The notes beneath the pieces are model-generated. The model saw only the letters and a program-made list of their open reading frames with translations, was not told where the DNA came from and did no database searches. A stretch of DNA of 64,000 nucleotides from Escherichia phage HY126. Location of the stretch: sequence record PP658200.1. One strand, written 5' to 3'. Positions 1,194 to 63,877 of this stretch are shown in pieces. Positions within the stretch are counted from its first letter, which is position 1. Each line of letters opens with the position of its first letter. Position numbers and translations under genes: made by a program.

Positions 1194-1430
1194 TTAACCG
1201 CTTACTGGTGTAGGGGTAAACATTGCAGCGTTCTTAGTTTTCCAATCAGCTGCATCAGAAACTACAGTAGAATATGCTGCCTTTTCTGATGGAAAGATTT
1301 GGTAATGAGAATCCGCAATTCGATGTTCGTTTGAATAAATCTCAAACGGTACAGAAACTTCCATACCTTTAACTTCTTTGCCTTCACCAGCCGGACGTGT
1401 AAAGGTTTTAATATTAACGTAACCACCCAT
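1194..1430 (-). CDS. soc: small outer capsid protein Soc
   Basis: 78 aa; GYVNIKTF...HYQ.FPSEKAAYSTV matches T4 Soc as I recall it; late promoter TATAAATA and AAAGGAG SD upstream. Confidence 0.85.
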   Translation of the reverse strand: MGGYVNIKTFTRPAGEGKEVKGMEVSVPFEIYSNEHRIADSHYQIFPSEKAAYSTVVSDAADWKTKNAAMFTPTPVSG

Positions 1431-1462
1431 AATTAACTCCTTTGTTGTTTAATTACAGGTGT

Positions 1463-1470
1463 ATTTATAA
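1463..1470 (-). promoter_or_regulatory. T4 late promoter TATAAATA (soc)
   Basis: Exact TATAAATA on minus strand (plus-strand tatttata) about 30 nt upstream of soc ATG. Confidence 0.7.
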
Positions 1471-1475
1471 CTTAA

Positions 1476-1997
1476 TCAGTAACCATTATCCTGGCGTTCA
1501 AAGTTGTGTTGGTTTTTCAAGTAGTAAAGTTTAAAGATTTCTTCAGCAGAAAGACCCAGACCTTGGAACATGTTCAGAACGAAGTGCAGAATATCAATCA
1601 TCTCAAATTTAATTTCAAGCTGGTCTTCAGGAGACAGTTCATCGATACGACGATTACGATATTCAGCATGTTGTGCTTTCCACGGCTTCCATACACTGCT
1701 GGCGGCTTTTTCACCATTGCTCATACCACCAAGTGAAGTCAGCAGTTCACGGAATTCATCATCAATATAATCTTTCTGATTACGCAGCCAATCAACAACG
1801 TCGCCTGCAGTGGCCAATTCATCAGGATGTTTGTTATGTTCAGGCTTGTCATTTGCCAAACGAACCTGTAAAGATTTCTGCATATCAAGCATTACCTGAA
1901 GTGGGTCTTTATCTTCGTGAATCAGAGCATTAAAATAAGCTTCTTCTGCTTTATCAACACCAGAAATAAGTTGTGAACATTCGTTAAAGTGTGCCAT
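1476..1997 (-). CDS. 56: dCTPase/dUTPase gp56 (dCTP pyrophosphatase, MazG-like)
   Basis: Strong similarity to T4 gp56 as recalled (MAHFNEC...DPLQVMLDMQ...FRELLTSLG...EDQLEIKFE..DI.HFVLNMF); start refined to MAHFNEC with AAAGGA SD. Confidence 0.85.
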   Translation of the reverse strand: MAHFNECSQLISGVDKAEEAYFNALIHEDKDPLQVMLDMQKSLQVRLANDKPEHNKHPDELATAGDVVDWLRNQKDYIDDEFRELLTSLGGMSNGEKAASSVWKPWKAQHAEYRNRRIDELSPEDQLEIKFEMIDILHFVLNMFQGLGLSAEEIFKLYYLKNQHNFERQDNGY

Positions 1998-4973: not shown

Positions 4974-5002
4974 TTTAACTCCTTAGTTGATTTGATAGGA
5001 CT

Positions 5003-5032
5003 ACTATACTATAGTCCATCTATAATGTAAAC
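5003..5032 (-). promoter_or_regulatory. T4-early-like promoter upstream of sp
   Basis: Minus strand GTTTAC - 18 nt - TATAGT; spacer region carries the recurrent GATAGGACTA palindromic element. Confidence 0.5.
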
Positions 5033-6499: not shown

Positions 6500-6550
6500 T
6501 TCTCCAGTAGTTGATAGGTCTATAATAACACAACTACTGGAGAAGTAAAC
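6500..6550 (-). promoter_or_regulatory. early promoter embedded in 14-bp inverted repeat that pairs with the SD
   Basis: Minus strand GTTTAC-TTCTCCAGTAGTTG-...TATTAT...-CAACTACTGGAGAA-CAAAATG; halves at 6500-6513 and 6531-6544 are perfect complements; downstream half contains the SD. Confidence 0.55.
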
Positions 6551-6925: not shown

Positions 6926-6991
6926 AATGTTTTCCTCTTGGTTTGTGTAAGTACATCATATCATGCCTAGAGGAAGATGTAAACCCCGAAA

Positions 6992-29713: not shown

Positions 29714-30012
29714 GGCTTAATTTCCTTCGCAATTGAACAGAAGATACCACGGTCACAAAGCATTTCACCAATTTCTGGATATTTGATTGAACGGTACCAA
29801 ACATCCAGGCTTGAAACTCTGGTTATCTGTATTGCATTACCATTGACAGAATAGTACTGGTCGACCTTAATTTCTTTATCTTCAATTGTCATTTTATTTT
29901 CCTCTATAGTAGATGGTTTAATCTTAACACATCTATTGAGGATGTAAACTGTTTTATGAAAATATTTTCGATTTGAGAGGGGCACAAGGAGATAGTGAAG
30001 TGAAGATTCCAA
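29710..30012 (-). CDS. hypothetical protein (100 aa)
   Basis: Minus ORF, ATGA-coupled. Confidence 0.5.
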   Translation of the reverse strand: MESSLHYLLVPLSNRKYFHKTVYILNRCVKIKPSTIEENKMTIEDKEIKVDQYYSVNGNAIQITRVSSLDVWYRSIKYPEIGEMLCDRGIFCSIAKEIKP

Positions 30013-39603: not shown

Positions 39604-39629
39604 GTTTTACCTCCAGTAGTTGATAGGTC

Positions 39630-39659
39630 TATAATATCATAACCATAGACCTTGTAAAC
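39630..39659 (-). promoter_or_regulatory. T4-early-like promoter
   Basis: Minus strand GTTTAC - 17 nt - TATTAT; -10 flanked by inverted repeat AGGTCTAT / ATAGACCT. Confidence 0.5.
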
Positions 39660-42967: not shown

Positions 42968-43498
42968 TTATTTCAAAGTCGGGATAATAGAATCAAGATA
43001 AGCTTTAAGAGCAACTGCTTCATCTTTGTCTAATGTAATGATATGTTGACGAAGGTCATCAATTTGACGAATAACTACGACATCACCATCTTCATAAGAA
43101 GGATTAACGCTCAGGACTGTTGTATAGTCAGGGCGGTCCTGATTTGTAATAAAAGCATTACGACATTTAGCCCATTGAAGTTTGGCCTTTTTGACTGTTT
43201 CAGATTCCATGAATTCTTTCACTTTAGTGACGAATGTTTTCCAATTATTAATAGAAAAACATTCGTCTTCAGTTTCGATATTAACCCCACTATAAAGTCC
43301 GTGATAAAAACGAACTTGAAGGTCTTCATCAATGTTAATTACAGATGCATGGCCTGGCGGATTGAGTTTCAAAATCTTGTCTAGTTCCATAGGAAGAATA
43401 GTAACAGCATCATCTTCTTGCGTCAGAACGTAAGCATAACCGCGTTTTTCAATACATAAATCACCGAACAACTCTGTTGTTTCAATTACAGTTTTCAT
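42968..43498 (-). CDS. hypothetical protein (about 176 aa)
   Basis: Start refined to MKTVIETTEL (track start is a TTG). Confidence 0.55.
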   Translation of the reverse strand: MKTVIETTELFGDLCIEKRGYAYVLTQEDDAVTILPMELDKILKLNPPGHASVINIDEDLQVRFYHGLYSGVNIETEDECFSINNWKTFVTKVKEFMESETVKKAKLQWAKCRNAFITNQDRPDYTTVLSVNPSYEDGDVVVIRQIDDLRQHIITLDKDEAVALKAYLDSIIPTLK

Positions 43499-43679: not shown

Positions 43680-43813
43680 TTTACCATACTCGTTTCAATA
43701 AGATTCACTATGCCGTTTACCATGTTATAAGTAAACATCGGATAATTGTATTGTACTACAACATAAGCGATAAGCAAAAGTTTCATTTTGTTCTCCGTTT
43801 GTTTTGATAGGAC

Positions 43814-43844
43814 TACTATAACATAGTCCTACCAAGATGTAAAC
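43814..43844 (-). promoter_or_regulatory. T4-early-like promoter with palindromic GATAGGACTA element
   Basis: Minus strand GTTTAC - 18 nt - TATAGT; -10 flanked by TAGGACTA / TAGTCCTA. Confidence 0.5.
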
Positions 43845-44240: not shown

Positions 44241-44267
44241 AACGTTCTCCTCTAGTAAGTAAGGACT

Positions 44268-44296
44268 ACTATAACACAACCTGAGGAGAAGTAAAC
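44268..44296 (-). promoter_or_regulatory. early promoter with SD-complementary -35-proximal box
   Basis: GTTTAC-TTCTCCTC-…TATAGT…-GAGGAGAA-CGTTATG; the 8-nt box after -35 is the exact complement of the SD. Confidence 0.55.
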
Positions 44297-44341: not shown

Positions 44342-44644
44342 TTAGATAGATGTAGGCTCTAATTTTATTTTCATGAACTCGGCAAATTGTCTGGCGGTTT
44401 TTATGCCTTGTTCATGACATTCAAATGCATCATCACAGGGGCTATTTTTGTAATGCTTTGCCATATACTTATAGAATTTTTCAGAATTCTCGACATTTTG
44501 AATTTCAAACAAAGTATATACGTTTTTAATCCCTGATTCCATAAAGTTATCAAAATATGGGTCGATATGTGCAGTACCAACGATAGGAGTTGTTGCTGCA
44601 AAAAACCCCAGCATCGCTATGACAGCTATCGCTCTTAAGGCCAT
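44342..44644 (-). CDS. rI: lysis-inhibition regulator RI (antiholin)
   Basis: 100 aa; signal-anchor plus …D.FMESGI..VY.LFE…S.FEC… matches T4 RI as recalled. Confidence 0.85.
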   Translation of the reverse strand: MALRAIAVIAMLGFFAATTPIVGTAHIDPYFDNFMESGIKNVYTLFEIQNVENSEKFYKYMAKHYKNSPCDDAFECHEQGIKTARQFAEFMKIKLEPTSI

Positions 44645-47869: not shown

Positions 47870-47896
47870 TTTGATTTCTCCTCTAGTTGACAGGTC

Positions 47897-47926
47897 TATA
47901 GTAACACAACTAGAGGAGAAGTAAAC
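47897..47926 (-). promoter_or_regulatory. early promoter with SD-sequestering inverted repeat (regB)
   Basis: GTTTAC-TTCTCCTCTAGTTG-…TACTAT…-CAACTAGAGGAGAA-ATCAAAATG; 14-nt halves are perfect complements. Confidence 0.55.
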
Positions 47927-48224
47927 TACTCTTTGAAAGGAATTAACTTTTTAACTGCTTTAGATACTTCGTCACGAACCTGGTGGAAGTTCTTGAGCTG
48001 TTCAAGGCGTTGTTCGTAATACGCAATCTCATCTTCTTCAAGACAATCGTCAGCGTCTTCTTTCAGATATGCCTTGTACTCATTAAAGAGGGCCCATAGG
48101 CGATTCTCAAAGTCATCAAGGCTTTGAATTTTCTTGTGCTTCGGAACAAGGCCAAAAGGATTGCTTTCAGTTATGCGTCGAGATGCTTCATAATGAGTTC
48201 CAAAGCCTGATAGGATTTGAGCCA
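47926..48224 (-). CDS. hypothetical protein (about 99 aa)
   Basis: Start refined to MAQILSGFG with GAGGAAAAA SD. Confidence 0.5.
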
Positions 48225-51483: not shown

Positions 51484-51510
51484 AATTTCCTCCAAGTAGT
51501 TGATGAATGT

Positions 51511-51540
51511 ATAGTATCAAAACCCTTGGAGGAAGTAAAC
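51511..51540 (-). promoter_or_regulatory. early promoter with SD-sequestering inverted repeat (denV)
   Basis: GTTTAC-TTCCTCCAAG-…TACTAT…-CTTGGAGGAA-ATTATG; 10-nt halves complementary, downstream half contains SD GGAGGAA. Confidence 0.55.
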
Positions 51541-51541
51541 A

Positions 51542-51823
51542 CTATTTTTCTGAAGCGCCTGAAATATATTTTTCAAGACGTTGTTTCATCAGCGAGCCGT
51601 TCTTAGCGATTTCTTCCGGTTTATCGCACATACGTAACAAGGCTTCAAGCTTAGCGATATCGCTGGTACGTTCAAATTTGCGAGTATCTATCTTACTAGC
51701 AAGTTCAGAAATACGTGCTAGTAGACTTTCGGCTTCAACCAAAGCTGCACCTAGCTTAGTTGCAAATGTGTCAGTAGCTTCGTTAAGAATAGATTCTGAT
51801 AAAAATTCACTATAGGTTTTCAT
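51542..51823 (-). CDS. internal head protein (IP-like)
   Basis: Start refined to [10 protein letters not shown] (CTS-like); ATGA-coupled to lysozyme gene. Confidence 0.6.
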
Positions 51824-54784: not shown

Positions 54785-54803
54785 TCATTTGTTTTGATAG
54801 GTC

Positions 54804-54833
54804 TATAGTATCAACAACTACAGACCTTGTAAA
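54804..54833 (-). promoter_or_regulatory. T4-early-like promoter
   Basis: GTTTAC - 18 nt - TACTAT; -10 flanked by AGGTCTGTAG / CTATAGACCT. Confidence 0.5.
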
Positions 54834-54846
54834 CAGTTTTGCGAAA

Positions 54847-56083: not shown

Positions 56084-56099
56084 TTAATTTGATAGGACT

Positions 56100-56129
56100 A
56101 CTATAACATAGCCCTATCTTGTTGTAAAC
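56100..56129 (-). promoter_or_regulatory. T4-early-like promoter with palindromic GATAGGACTA element
   Basis: GTTTAC - 18 nt - TATAGT; palindrome gataggactactataacatagccctatc. Confidence 0.5.
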
Positions 56130-57658: not shown

Positions 57659-58239
57659 ATTCTCTACATTCCATAATAAATTGCTCAAGGATTAAATTGT
57701 TAGTGAAATTAGGACTAACAACCATAGTTTCATAAAGCGCATCAATAGCACTTAAAGCATCAACTCTTTTAAGCAAAAGCTTGCCTTCATACATAGTTTC
57801 AGAATCGACGATTAACGTAAAGTAATATTTTTTATTATCGACTAGAACTTCTGTATCGATATAAAACATATTAGACCTCAGAAGCTTATCTCTAAAACCA
57901 TAATAATCTTCTGAATGTTCACTGATATATTCCCATTCAGTGTTTAAACAACAAACAGACCACGTAGGAGCGACGAAATCAGTGAATCTAATATCATGGT
58001 CTGCAACTAGTTTAGCAATAGCTCCGATATCATGAATCATAATACCTGGGGCTAATAAAGATTTTCTGCTATGGCTAGCCGTTTTCTCGGTGGTCTCATA
58101 AGAAGCTGACCAGTACCATTTACGTCCGGTTGCAACATATCGTAATGAATCAACTAAAGACGTAGGTGGATTTACCTTATCTCGGAACTCTTCGAACATT
58201 GAGTCAATATCATTATTTTGGTTTCGCATGTTAACTCCT
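57627..58239 (-). CDS. hypothetical protein
   Basis: Start refined to MRNQNNDID with AAAGGAG SD. Confidence 0.55.
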
Positions 58240-58248
58240 TTATTATCC

Positions 58249-58270
58249 AAAAGGAGGACCGGAGTCCTCC
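58249..58270 (-). terminator. possible intrinsic terminator
   Basis: Minus strand GGAGGAC-UCCG-GUCCUCC hairpin followed by UUUUGG; short U-tract. Confidence 0.4.
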
Positions 58271-58278
58271 GTATTATT

Positions 58279-58872
58279 TTATTTCAAAGAGTTAATATAT
58301 TCTTGTACATCAGCAGAAGTGGTTTCGACACCGGCTGGAGTACCATTGAACGTTTCAACACGAGTCAGAGTGTCTTCGATATCAACCTTAGTCAGCGCAG
58401 CGATTTCAATTACATCATCGGCCGTAGAGATACCAAGGGCATTGGCTGCTCGAGTTTCACGAATGTATTCGAGTTTGATTGCCAGATTCTGACGAGCATC
58501 ATCAAGTTCAACCACCTTACGAGCAATTTCAATTCGCATAGCGGCATACCCGTCAGCTTTTGTATTAAGTTGTTCGGCAGTTCGACGATACAGAAGACCA
58601 AGCTTAGCATGCATGGTAACATCTTGTCCTTCAGCCAGGAGCTTACGAATTTCACGTTCCTTAGAAGCGGCTTGCTTATTCTTTTCAATAACAAGTTCGC
58701 GAATACGTTTTTCTTCATTAATAGATTTAACAGAAGCCGTTTTTAGTTCTTTGATTTGGGTAATCAACTTATCTGCAGCTGCGTTATACTGTTCTTCGAC
58801 AGTCAGATTTTTAGCCATAGCAGTACCCAGTTTAGTGCGGATGAATTCAACAAGTTTCTTCAGTGTGTTCAT
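58279..58872 (-). CDS. coiled-coil protein, possibly PspA/IM30-like
   Basis: About 200 aa all-helical heptad-rich sequence; loose resemblance to PspA from memory only; start refined to MNTLKK. Confidence 0.55.
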
Positions 58873-61401: not shown

Positions 61402-61480
61402 ATTTTCCTCACTTAAAGTTGGTGCCTCTAGAAAGATTTGAACTCTCACCATTAACCTTAGAACGATTATATGCTATCCA

Positions 61481-62146
61481 TTACACTATAGAGGCAATTA
61501 AATTATTTACAATATCTTCTTTATAAACTTCAGCATAATGAAGTTCATATATTTCCCATCCTAATGATTTTATAATATCATGGCGTTCTTTATAATAAGG
61601 GGCCAAAATCTTTTTCTTAGGATTGGAGTAATGTTGGTTTCCATTAACTTCAATAATAATCTTTTTATCTATTAAAGCAATATCCGTGCAATACGCTCGG
61701 TTTTTAACCGGTTGGTATTCTTCAATAAATGAAATTCCGTTTTCTATTAATTTAGATTTCAAAAATTCACAAGGCACAGATTTAAATTTTGTATTTTTCT
61801 TCCAAGGATGTTTATCAGGGTTTTCATTCAACCATTTTTTCCGAGCATTAGATATTTTTATTCTAGATTCCTCAGAGTGTTCTCTACCTAATGAAGCGGC
61901 TGACAATTTTTGTCTAGTCTCTTCCGAAATTACTACAGGGACACCAGTCTTTTTAGATACAACATACTGGTTTAAATTACCTGAAGCTATACGTGCTTTA
62001 TTCATTGCTGCAATGGCTGATTTAGAACTTTCTTTATACAATTCCAATTTAGGGTTGGATTTACACCATCTAGTGTGGTTAGCCATCCATCCTTTAGGTT
62101 TATTAGAAATATCAAATTCCATATTACAATGTTTACAAATGCTCAT
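61481..62146 (-). CDS. homing-endonuclease-like protein (NUMOD3 motifs + Vsr/DUF559-like nuclease domain)
   Basis: Two NUMOD3-like repeats (SEETRQKLSAA, SEESRIKISNA), N-terminal Cys/His cluster, C-terminal …IIIEVNGNQH…KERHDIIKSLGWEIYEL… like DUF559/Vsr endonucleases; start refined to MSICKH. Confidence 0.65.
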   Translation of the reverse strand: MSICKHCNMEFDISNKPKGWMANHTRWCKSNPKLELYKESSKSAIAAMNKARIASGNLNQYVVSKKTGVPVVISEETRQKLSAASLGREHSEESRIKISNARKKWLNENPDKHPWKKNTKFKSVPCEFLKSKLIENGISFIEEYQPVKNRAYCTDIALIDKKIIIEVNGNQHYSNPKKKILAPYYKERHDIIKSLGWEIYELHYAEVYKEDIVNNLIASIV

Positions 62147-62220: not shown

Positions 62221-62292
62221 CTGGCGCACTTGGACTCGAACCAAGATAAAGGAGTTAACAGCTCCCCGTAATAACCTTTATACGATGCACCA
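62221..62292 (-). tRNA. tRNA, anticodon GUU (Asn); CCA not encoded
   Basis: Folded by eye: 7-bp acceptor (one G-U), U8, A14, GG in D-loop, anticodon loop CUGUUAA, T-arm CUUGG-UUCGAGU-CCAAG. Confidence 0.55.
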
Positions 62293-62298
62293 TTTGTT

Positions 62299-62373
62299 TG
62301 GTGACCCTGGCTGGTTTCGATCCAGCTACCTATCAGTTATGAGCTGACAGCTCTCCCATTGAGCTACAGGGCC
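62299..62373 (-). tRNA. tRNA, anticodon CAU (Met or Ile2), encoded CCA
   Basis: Folded by eye: GGCCCUG acceptor, D-arm GCUC/GAGC, anticodon loop CUCAUAA, T-arm GCUGG…CCAGC, 3' ACCA. Confidence 0.75.
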
Positions 62374-63830: not shown

Positions 63831-63847
63831 TTTGTTTTGATAGGACT

Positions 63848-63877
63848 ACTATAACATAGTCCTATCAGCGTGTAAAC
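63848..63877 (-). promoter_or_regulatory. T4-early-like promoter with palindromic GATAGGACTA element
   Basis: GTTTAC - 18 nt - TATAGT; palindrome gataggactactataacatagtcctatc. Confidence 0.5.

Follow-up and report, generated by a model that had tools for sequence, protein, structure and literature searches.

Early promoters of Escherichia phage HY126 and other T4-type phages carry segments complementary to the downstream Shine-Dalgarno region: a probable case of promoter-gated translation

Hairpins that occlude the ribosome-binding site (RBS) of transcripts arriving from an upstream promoter are known from T4: the version built around a late promoter has been shown experimentally for e and I-TevI and reported for soc and 49, and segB and Aeh1 mobE have likewise been reported with late-promoter RBS-sequestering hairpins (PMC3014915; PMC2988022). 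In the words of Edgell et al. (2010), the genes regulated by such hairpins "are all late genes" (PMC2988022). A second group of described elements, the PeSLs of T4-type phages, combines an early promoter with a stem-loop lying between or overlapping the -35 and -10 boxes (Arbiol 2010, Comeau 2014; PMC2839356, PMC4122927), and the PeSL papers in turn cite promoter/stem-loop elements of Repoila (1994). Here we consider a 64,000-nucleotide stretch of Escherichia phage HY126 (record PP658200.1; hereafter the window), in which several early promoters, including those of regB and denV, carry a segment just before the predicted transcription start that is complementary to the Shine-Dalgarno (SD) region of the gene downstream. 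The best explanation of these promoters is probably promoter-gated translation, whereby a gene would be translated from its own early transcript and not from transcripts initiated upstream. An earlier note on this DNA had already proposed such a coupling of translation to promoter choice; each part of that reading open to computation holds, and the start sites in HY126, the effect on translation and its rationale in timing are what we infer from those parts.

The comparison with e, soc, 49 and I-TevI, the first two of which the earlier note had rightly named as precedents (PMC3014915; PMC2988022), reveals both likeness and difference. As in those genes, the SD and/or the AUG lies in a stable (here predicted) helix on upstream-initiated transcripts, and an internal promoter gives rise to transcripts (here with predicted starts) that drop the 5' arm. 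However, those genes use the gp55-dependent late promoter TATAAATA and are silent early and translated late, whereas at the HY126 sites the promoter is of the sigma-70 early type, the anti-SD is built into that promoter as its spacer or its -10 to -1 segment, and translation would occur only from the gene's own immediate-early promoter. Because the promoters are early and regB is an early gene, we class these sites as a variant, rather than a member, of the e/soc type. With PeSLs they share the form of a short, repeated intergenic cassette in which a sigma-70-type early promoter and a stem-loop stand just 5' of the SD and ATG. Yet PeSL stem-loops have been read as terminators or recombination sites with a separate SD, with neither SD pairing nor an effect on translation proposed (PMC2839356; PMC4122927), and the SD-pairing helices of HY126 differ from them in having no U tract and in covarying with the SD. 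Nolan et al. (2006) predicted 57 early promoters in RB69 and mention no hairpins. Early-promoter anti-SD pairing was not found described in the full texts searched, although older T4 work outside this coverage may hold an earlier note of it. A further parallel may lie in the "fold-back inhibition" of IS10 and IS50, reportedly worked out by Davis, Simons and Kleckner in 1985 and by Krebs/Schulz and Reznikoff, in which a sigma-70 promoter is said to lie in a potential hairpin such that transcripts from outside pair with the transposase RBS and the element's own transcripts do not. That system reportedly insulates a single gene from host promoters, is not said to be reused across multiple genes, and reportedly does not place its anti-SD in the promoter spacer.

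The window represents a T4-type early region with almost all of its genes on the minus strand, to which all features given below belong; it shares about 98% identity with Escherichia phage vB_Eco_F27 and related phages and falls in the genus Mosigvirus (RB69-like), not with T4. The four promoter-embedded inverted repeats singled out by the earlier note are all present on that strand, and at each the order is the same: the -35 box GTTTAC, the anti-SD arm, a TGn-extended -10 box, the SD arm and, 3 to 6 nt further on, the ATG. At the first (the 6550 site), the -35 box (6545-6550) is followed directly by the 5' arm TTCTCCAGTAGTTG in the spacer (6531-6544), the TGT-extended -10 box TATTAT (6522-6527) falls in the loop of the read-through hairpin, and the 3' arm CAACTACTGGAGAA with the SD GGAG (6500-6513) completes a perfect 14-bp helix ahead of a 105-aa open reading frame (ORF) without an assigned family (ATG 6495-6493). 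The regB site has its -35 box at 47921-47926, 5' arm TTCTCCTCTAGTTG at 47907-47920, TGT-extended -10 box TACTAT at 47898-47903 and SD-containing 3' arm CAACTAGAGGAGAA at 47876-47889, again forming 14 perfect base pairs, before the regB ATG at 47869-47867. Where the 6550 site has AG in its 5' arm, regB has TC, and the regB 3' arm compensates for this double change. At denV the corresponding elements are GTTTAC (51535-51540), TTCCTCCAAG (51525-51534), the -10 box TACTAT (51511-51516) and the SD arm CTTGGAGGAA (51487-51496), with 10 bp and an ATG at 51483-51481; this repeat had been placed at 51497-51545, a minor slip in the start, since the left arm occupies 51487-51496. The fourth (the 44245 site) combines GTTTAC (44291-44296) and the 5' arm TTCTCCTC (44283-44290) with the SD arm GAGGAGAA (44245-44252) in an 8-bp helix before a DUF7438 gene (ATG 44240), and an intrinsic terminator lies just upstream of it. 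The gene names regB and denV are borne out by matches of the downstream proteins to RegB (PF10715, E 3e-69) and DenV (PF03013).

Two further sites in the window pair with the SD. One, preceded by a hairpin with a UUCG loop, has GTTTAC at 6979-6984, the 5' arm TTCCTCT at 6969-6975 and the SD arm AGAGGAA at 6932-6938, which form 7 bp ahead of a 124-aa ORF (ATG 6925). The other extends over 29900-29949, with the -35 box at 29944-29949; its helix, which is interrupted, occupies 29900-29942 (TCCTC..TAGATG / CATCTA..GAGGA) and covers the SD of a 60-aa ORF (ATG 29892) with a duplex energy of -12.3 kcal/mol (p(E)=0.002). Five sites have the arm right behind the -35 box, and there its start is at -49 to -51 relative to the ATG. 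The promoters fit the T4-type early consensus GTTTAC-N17/18-TGnTAnnAT, and several cassettes in the window have the core TATAGACCTATCAACTAC in common. A generic sigma-70 scan of 43.5-52 kb returned 30 sites against 29.7 in shuffles, with no excess; since it does no better than shuffles, we based promoter calls on the T4 early consensus together with the literature.

The pairing exceeds what spacers of this composition provide. Defining a cassette as an exact GTTTAC, 16 to 18 nt, a TAnnnT hexamer and then a gene, we found 19 in the window, for which the energies of the duplexes that the spacer forms with the -10-to-ATG segment add up to -225.8 kcal/mol, against -108.7 +/- 9.3 kcal/mol with shuffled spacers and a minimum of -143.6 kcal/mol over 500 shuffles. 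Of the 99 minus-strand genes called, 18 have an early promoter, and six of these show a helix of at least 7 bp over the SD, as against 5 of the other 81 (Fisher p=0.004). We also compared, using ViennaRNA, the fold of a read-through form, running from the -35 box through the start codon, with that of a promoter-proximal form beginning at the predicted +1, a comparison that the earlier note had called for. The read-through RNAs are structured at the 6550 site (-21.7 kcal/mol, z -5.4), regB (-21.6 kcal/mol, z -4.1) and denV (-19.1 kcal/mol, z -3.7), with none of 200 shuffles as good in any of the three, whereas the proximal RNAs reach only 0 to -2.5 kcal/mol. The probability that the SD-to-AUG region is unpaired is correspondingly 0.16 in the read-through against 0.68 in the proximal form at the 6550 site, and 0.35 against 0.72 at denV. 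That a read-through transcript would bury the RBS in a stem agrees with predicted helices of 14, 14, 10 and 8 bp at the four sites.

The same design is seen in T4 itself at both regB and denV. The T4 record AF158101 has no promoter features from which mapped starts could be taken. Among 34 early-promoter cassettes found in T4, nine (modB, nrdC.8, regB, denV, e.8, alt.-3, 30.8, alc and ndd.4) have a helix of 7 bp or more over the SD, and 12 have an SD-free helix enclosing the -10 box. Since the design recurs at 6 of the window's 18 promoter genes and in 9 of T4's 34 cassettes, the suggestion of a reused design is well founded: judging from sequence, about a quarter to a third of the early promoters in HY126 and T4 carry an anti-SD segment just before the start.

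Further evidence that the pairing matters comes from its history. Orthologous loci were collected from IMG/VR by way of RegB, DenV and three other downstream proteins, and at the regB, denV and nrdC.8-like loci the arm sequences differ wholly between lineages while their complementarity is kept. The regB arms of Mosigvirus are CTAGTTG / CAACTAG; T4 and Tequatrovirus have TTTTCCTCTTGACTG / CAGTTAAGAGGAGAA, a 15-bp helix that includes two G.U pairs and is borne out by AF158101, and other lineages have TTTCTCCTCTTTATG / CATAAAGAGGAGAAA or TCTCCTGTAAG / CTTACAGGAGA. Those of denV are TCTCCTGTAG / CTACAGGAGA in T4 and CTCCGTTTG / CAAACGGAG or TCTCCTGTG / CACAGGAGA in further lineages. In several lineages, the denV 5' arm is instead shifted over the -10 box and runs to -1 (TAGTAGTCT / AGACTACTA; ATGTCCTCCTA / TAGGAGGACAT), and in one arrangement of this layout (TATGATGTCTTC / GAGGACATCATG) the AUG is buried as well. 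For nrdC.8, T4-like phages (GTTCCTCTGTGGT / ACTACGGAGGAAC) and a third lineage (ATCTCCAGTAG / CTACTGGAGGT) have arms that pair with the SD, and the ortholog in the window (at 39659) has an SD-free hairpin. When the arms were anchored on motifs only, namely the anti-SD core and the SD core, contiguous pairing extended 4.4 nt past the core in cis as against 0.8 nt in trans (22 unique elements with 21 distinct arms). In an ungapped alignment of 14 distinct spacer-type elements, compared with 500 shuffles, 79.1% of cells were paired (65.2 +/- 2.2 in shuffles), 31 cells were changed on both sides (15.2 in shuffles) and the covariation score was 0.417 (0.185 in shuffles, and 0.075-0.135 in slid registers), none of which values was reached by a single shuffle. 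The predicted pairing with the SD is, on this evidence, kept by selection through compensatory change.

Two features of the wider set define what is being selected. Of 33 strong unique helices, 24 cover the SD, with the 5' arm in the spacer in 17 of these and over the -10 to -1 segment in the other seven; because of these seven, the shared target is the SD and not the -10 box, and the common denominator of the two layouts is a pre-start sequence predicted to pair with the SD, rather than a -10 box held in a loop. Allowing G.U pairs adds at least 2 bp to 10 of the strong helices, whereas allowing A.C pairs, each of which would be a G.U on the opposite strand, does so in only one. As G.U is tolerated and A.C is not, the pairing is selected in the gene-sense RNA, and not in DNA or in an antisense RNA.

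How the two kinds of transcript arise is suggested by the surroundings of the promoters. The stop codon of the upstream ORF adjoins or overlaps the -35 box, both in the window (TAA 6551-6553, as TAA|GTTTAC, at the 6550 site; TAG 47926-47928, sharing its G with GTTTAC, at regB; 51542-51544, as TAG-T-GTTTAC, at denV) and at most orthologous loci, and thus the intergenic gap, about 55 bp long, consists entirely of the promoter cassette. A terminator scan found no terminator-like site between the upstream ORF and the promoter at the 6550 site, regB and denV. Given this and the adjoining stop codon, RNA reading through from upstream would hold both arms, and read-through is to be expected at these three sites, each of which has a further early promoter a few hundred bases upstream. 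Conversely, both positions of the 5' arm, the spacer and the -10 to -1 segment, are wholly upstream of the +1 predicted from the -10 box, and transcripts from the local promoter would for this reason be without the arm. Where an intrinsic terminator stands just upstream (the 44245 site and a set of orthologs of the 6550 gene), the helix is reduced to a core of 5-8 bp, and over a small number of independent loci the mean length of the SD helix is 6.3 bp with such a terminator and 10.4 bp otherwise (p=0.008).

The mechanism that we envisage begins with a pre-start segment complementary to the SD region of its own gene and sometimes to the AUG too. RNA initiated at the gene's own promoter would begin past this segment, with an unstructured leader of about 22 nt and a free SD. 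RNA from an upstream promoter, be it extended early, delayed-early or middle, would hold both halves and fold into a helix of 8-15 bp with a predicted energy of about -15 to -22 kcal/mol; burial of the SD would then strongly reduce 30S binding and translation of the cistron. Translation of a gene so arranged would be all but confined to the activity of its own early promoter in the first minutes after infection. Such gating would suit functions that need tight limits, RegB being one example and Alc and ModB of T4 two others. The regB case fits well, because the regB promoter is off after 2-3 min and RegB is said to require tight control (PMC3014915). Secondary effects may include Rho-dependent polarity on untranslated read-through RNA and shielding of GGAG from RegB. 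Whether this amounts to a genome-wide rule of T4-type phages, in which the promoter encodes the anti-SD and about a quarter of the early genes (regB, denV, alc, modB, ndd.4, nrdC.8 and others) are translated only from their own immediate-early RNA and stay silent on delayed-early or middle read-through, possibly with Rho sensitivity and RegB protection, we regard as evenly balanced.

Several observations weigh against gating and should be set beside this evidence. The 44245 site, one of the four originally named, is a weak example, its 8-bp fold not being significant alone (z -0.87), and the orthologs of its gene are too similar to each other for covariation. Across the 99 minus-strand genes, the difference in SD accessibility between long and short contexts did not set the promoter genes apart (p=0.075), and the correlation of helix length with upstream terminators stands on two to three independent loci. 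The cassettes are repeated and recombine, and hence sites within one genome are not independent of each other; T4 is, moreover, known for quasi-palindrome-templated mutation, which could yield some apparently compensatory changes without selection. Finally, a covarying hairpin that leaves the SD free is found at about as many early promoters as the SD-pairing one, which implies that early-promoter hairpins serve some other purpose too.

Among other readings of the SD pairing, the one that survives best, though it is unlikely as the main function, is RNA protection, in which the pairing would mainly shield GGAG from RegB or block exonucleases and thereby stabilise long transcripts. RegB cuts GGAG in early SDs and is inhibited by RNA secondary structure (PMC1702504; PMC3014915), GGAG lies within the helix at four of the window's six SD-pairing sites, and the T4 denV SD is resistant to RegB in vivo (PMC1702504). 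However, GGAG is no commoner in the SD-pairing cassettes (4/6) than in the other cassettes of the window (7/11), the helices also cover SDs that have no GGAG (AGAGGAA at 6932), and Durand et al. credit the denV resistance to downstream sequence, a grafted A-rich tract having made this SD cleavable in vivo (PMC1702504). Protection of this kind is compatible with promoter-gated translation, and the two do not exclude each other.

We consider it quite improbable that the sites are PeSL-type cassettes, whose repeats would serve recombinational shuffling and/or attenuation of upstream transcription, with the SD pairing incidental. PeSLs do occur in T4-type phages and are tied to indels (PMC2839356; PMC4122927), the core TATAGACCTATCAACTAC is shared between cassettes, and a chimeric cassette with a left half of denV type stands at an ortholog of the 6550 gene; hairpins that enclose the -10 box and leave the SD free also match the PeSL description, and it is this class that such a reading suits better. 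As for the SD-pairing helices, the 3' arm is not followed by a U tract, and for this reason they are not intrinsic terminators, though on sequence they may still attenuate in a way that needs no U tract. The tolerance of G.U but not A.C speaks against a DNA-level cruciform or protein site, and the arms covary rather than being conserved, whereas recombination needs identity. Seven strong helices have their 5' arm on the -10 to -1 stretch and pair it with the SD or AUG, which makes sense only if the SD is the target. Further, the PST/T4 stem-loops are drawn in the PeSL papers on the upstream side of the promoter, with the SD apart from them (PMC4122927).

Translational coupling offers a very unlikely alternative: a ribosome ending at the adjacent upstream stop codon would open the helix, and read-through RNA would be coupled rather than silent. 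It draws on the position of the upstream stop, 6-9 nt before the 5' arm at the 6550 site, regB, denV and most orthologs, and on the SD being paired at the foot of the helix, closest to that stop codon. When the stop codon occupies its A site, however, a ribosome extends only about 5-7 nt further along the mRNA, and this keeps it within GTTTAC, barely touching a helix of 10-15 bp; 5' arms over the -10 to -1 segment sit more than 25 nt from the stop codon. That the complementarity has no function at all, reflecting chance resemblance of pyrimidine-rich spacers to anti-SDs, cassette duplication or quasi-palindrome-templated mutation, is scarcely credible: the two 14-bp examples in the window are indeed paralogous cassettes, and SDs are all so alike that any anti-SD-like spacer pairs with any SD, but pairing runs well beyond the core in cis and not in trans across 21 distinct arms, no shuffle of 500 matches the covariation, shuffled spacers never come near the real energies, and G.U pairs are retained instead of being corrected to perfect DNA palindromes.

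Three further candidates were rejected. An intrinsic terminator is excluded since the 3' arms run into CAAAATG, ATCAAAATG or ATTATG with no U run and a terminator scan finds none here; a DNA cruciform or protein site by the asymmetry between G.U and A.C; and a function on the antisense strand because the plus-strand hairpin is followed by GTAAAC with no T run.

If promoter-gated translation operates as envisaged, the timing of a set of early proteins, among them the RNase RegB and the T4 host-shutoff factors Alc and ModB, would depend on the promoter of origin of the RNA as well as on its abundance, and transcriptome-based expression maps would mislead, RNA abundance over-estimating expression after the first minutes. 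A mechanism thought to be confined to late genes would reach the sigma-70 early class, and the promoter spacer, usually deemed almost free sequence, would be under selection at the RNA level. The result would be an unrecognised post-transcriptional layer on the immediate-early/delayed-early split in a 70-year-old model system. It would also sharpen the PeSL concept, in that hairpins occluding the SD would be told apart from those that enclose the -10 box, and a promoter plus anti-RBS design of about 55 bp could insulate the genes of synthetic operons from upstream transcription.

The excess pairing of spacers in the window in fact falls into two classes, about six promoters pairing with the SD and about six with the -8 to +4 segment. 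In the second class, the -10 box lies in or beside a loop of 6-13 nt and the SD is accessible, as exemplified by TAGGACTA / TAGTCCTA and by the T4 nrdC.8 ortholog (39625-39659, hairpin 39625-39652), where the spacer arm AGGTCTAT pairs not with the SD but with ATAGACCT at -8 to +1. Other hairpins that enclose the -10 box and leave the SD free are those at 43804-43844 (hairpin 43804-43835; TTGGTAGGACTAT / GTAGTCCTATCAA), 63838-63877 (hairpin 63838-63867; TGATAGGACTAT / GTAGTCCTATCA), 56091-56129 (hairpin 56091-56118; GATAGGGCTAT / GTAGTCCTATC, with 2 G.U pairs), 54799-54834 (hairpin 54799-54827; AGGTCTGT / ATAGACCT) and 4998-5032 (hairpin 4998-5017; GGACTAT / GTAGTCC). These arms covary between lineages as well, with G.U tolerated (GGACTA/TAGTCC, GGGATAAT/ATTATCCC, AAGGCCAT/ATGGCCTT and GGGCCAT/ATGGCCC), and in T4 such hairpins are found at dmd, mobD.2, ipI, ipII, 30.7 and motB. 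The class is PeSL-like, matching the PeSL and IP-locus elements of Krisch and colleagues. As roughly equal numbers of promoters avoid the SD, not every promoter-embedded repeat fits SD gating.

Other occurrences of SD occlusion and of repeats were noted along the way. In a set of orthologs of the 6550 gene, the cassette is chimeric: its left half, TCTCCTGTAGGC, is of the denV type, its right half is the one native to the gene, and the two meet at the shared core TATAGACCTATCAACT. Only 5-6 bp still pair with the SD, and a terminator with a UUCG loop lies upstream. This architecture suggests recombination between cassettes within the conserved core. The window also has two long inverted repeats with no GTTTAC promoter, at 44362-44426 (23-nt arms, 78% complementary, 19-nt loop) and at 43229-43267 (19-nt arms, 89% complementary, 1-nt loop). 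A search of the whole window with Rfam 15 at the gathering threshold detected no RNA family at the promoter repeats, the only matches being three tRNA genes (61423-61495, 62221-62292 and 62302-62373, minus strand). A soc-like gene (ATG 1430; region about 1430-1480, minus strand) has the late motif TATAAATA directly 5' of a predicted 13-bp helix, CACCTGTAATTAA / TTAATTATGGGTG, that extends over the SD-to-AUG region and is the classical, already described late-gene version. Lastly, at the gene with its ATG at 58229 (about 58232-58300, minus strand), the partner of the SD region AAAGGAGTTAA is TTAACTCTTT, lying 66 nt upstream, and an intrinsic terminator with a UCCG loop (GGAGGACUCCGGUCCUCC followed by UUUU) is nested in the loop, the region as a whole folding at -24.2 kcal/mol; this is a predicted SD occlusion with no intervening early promoter.

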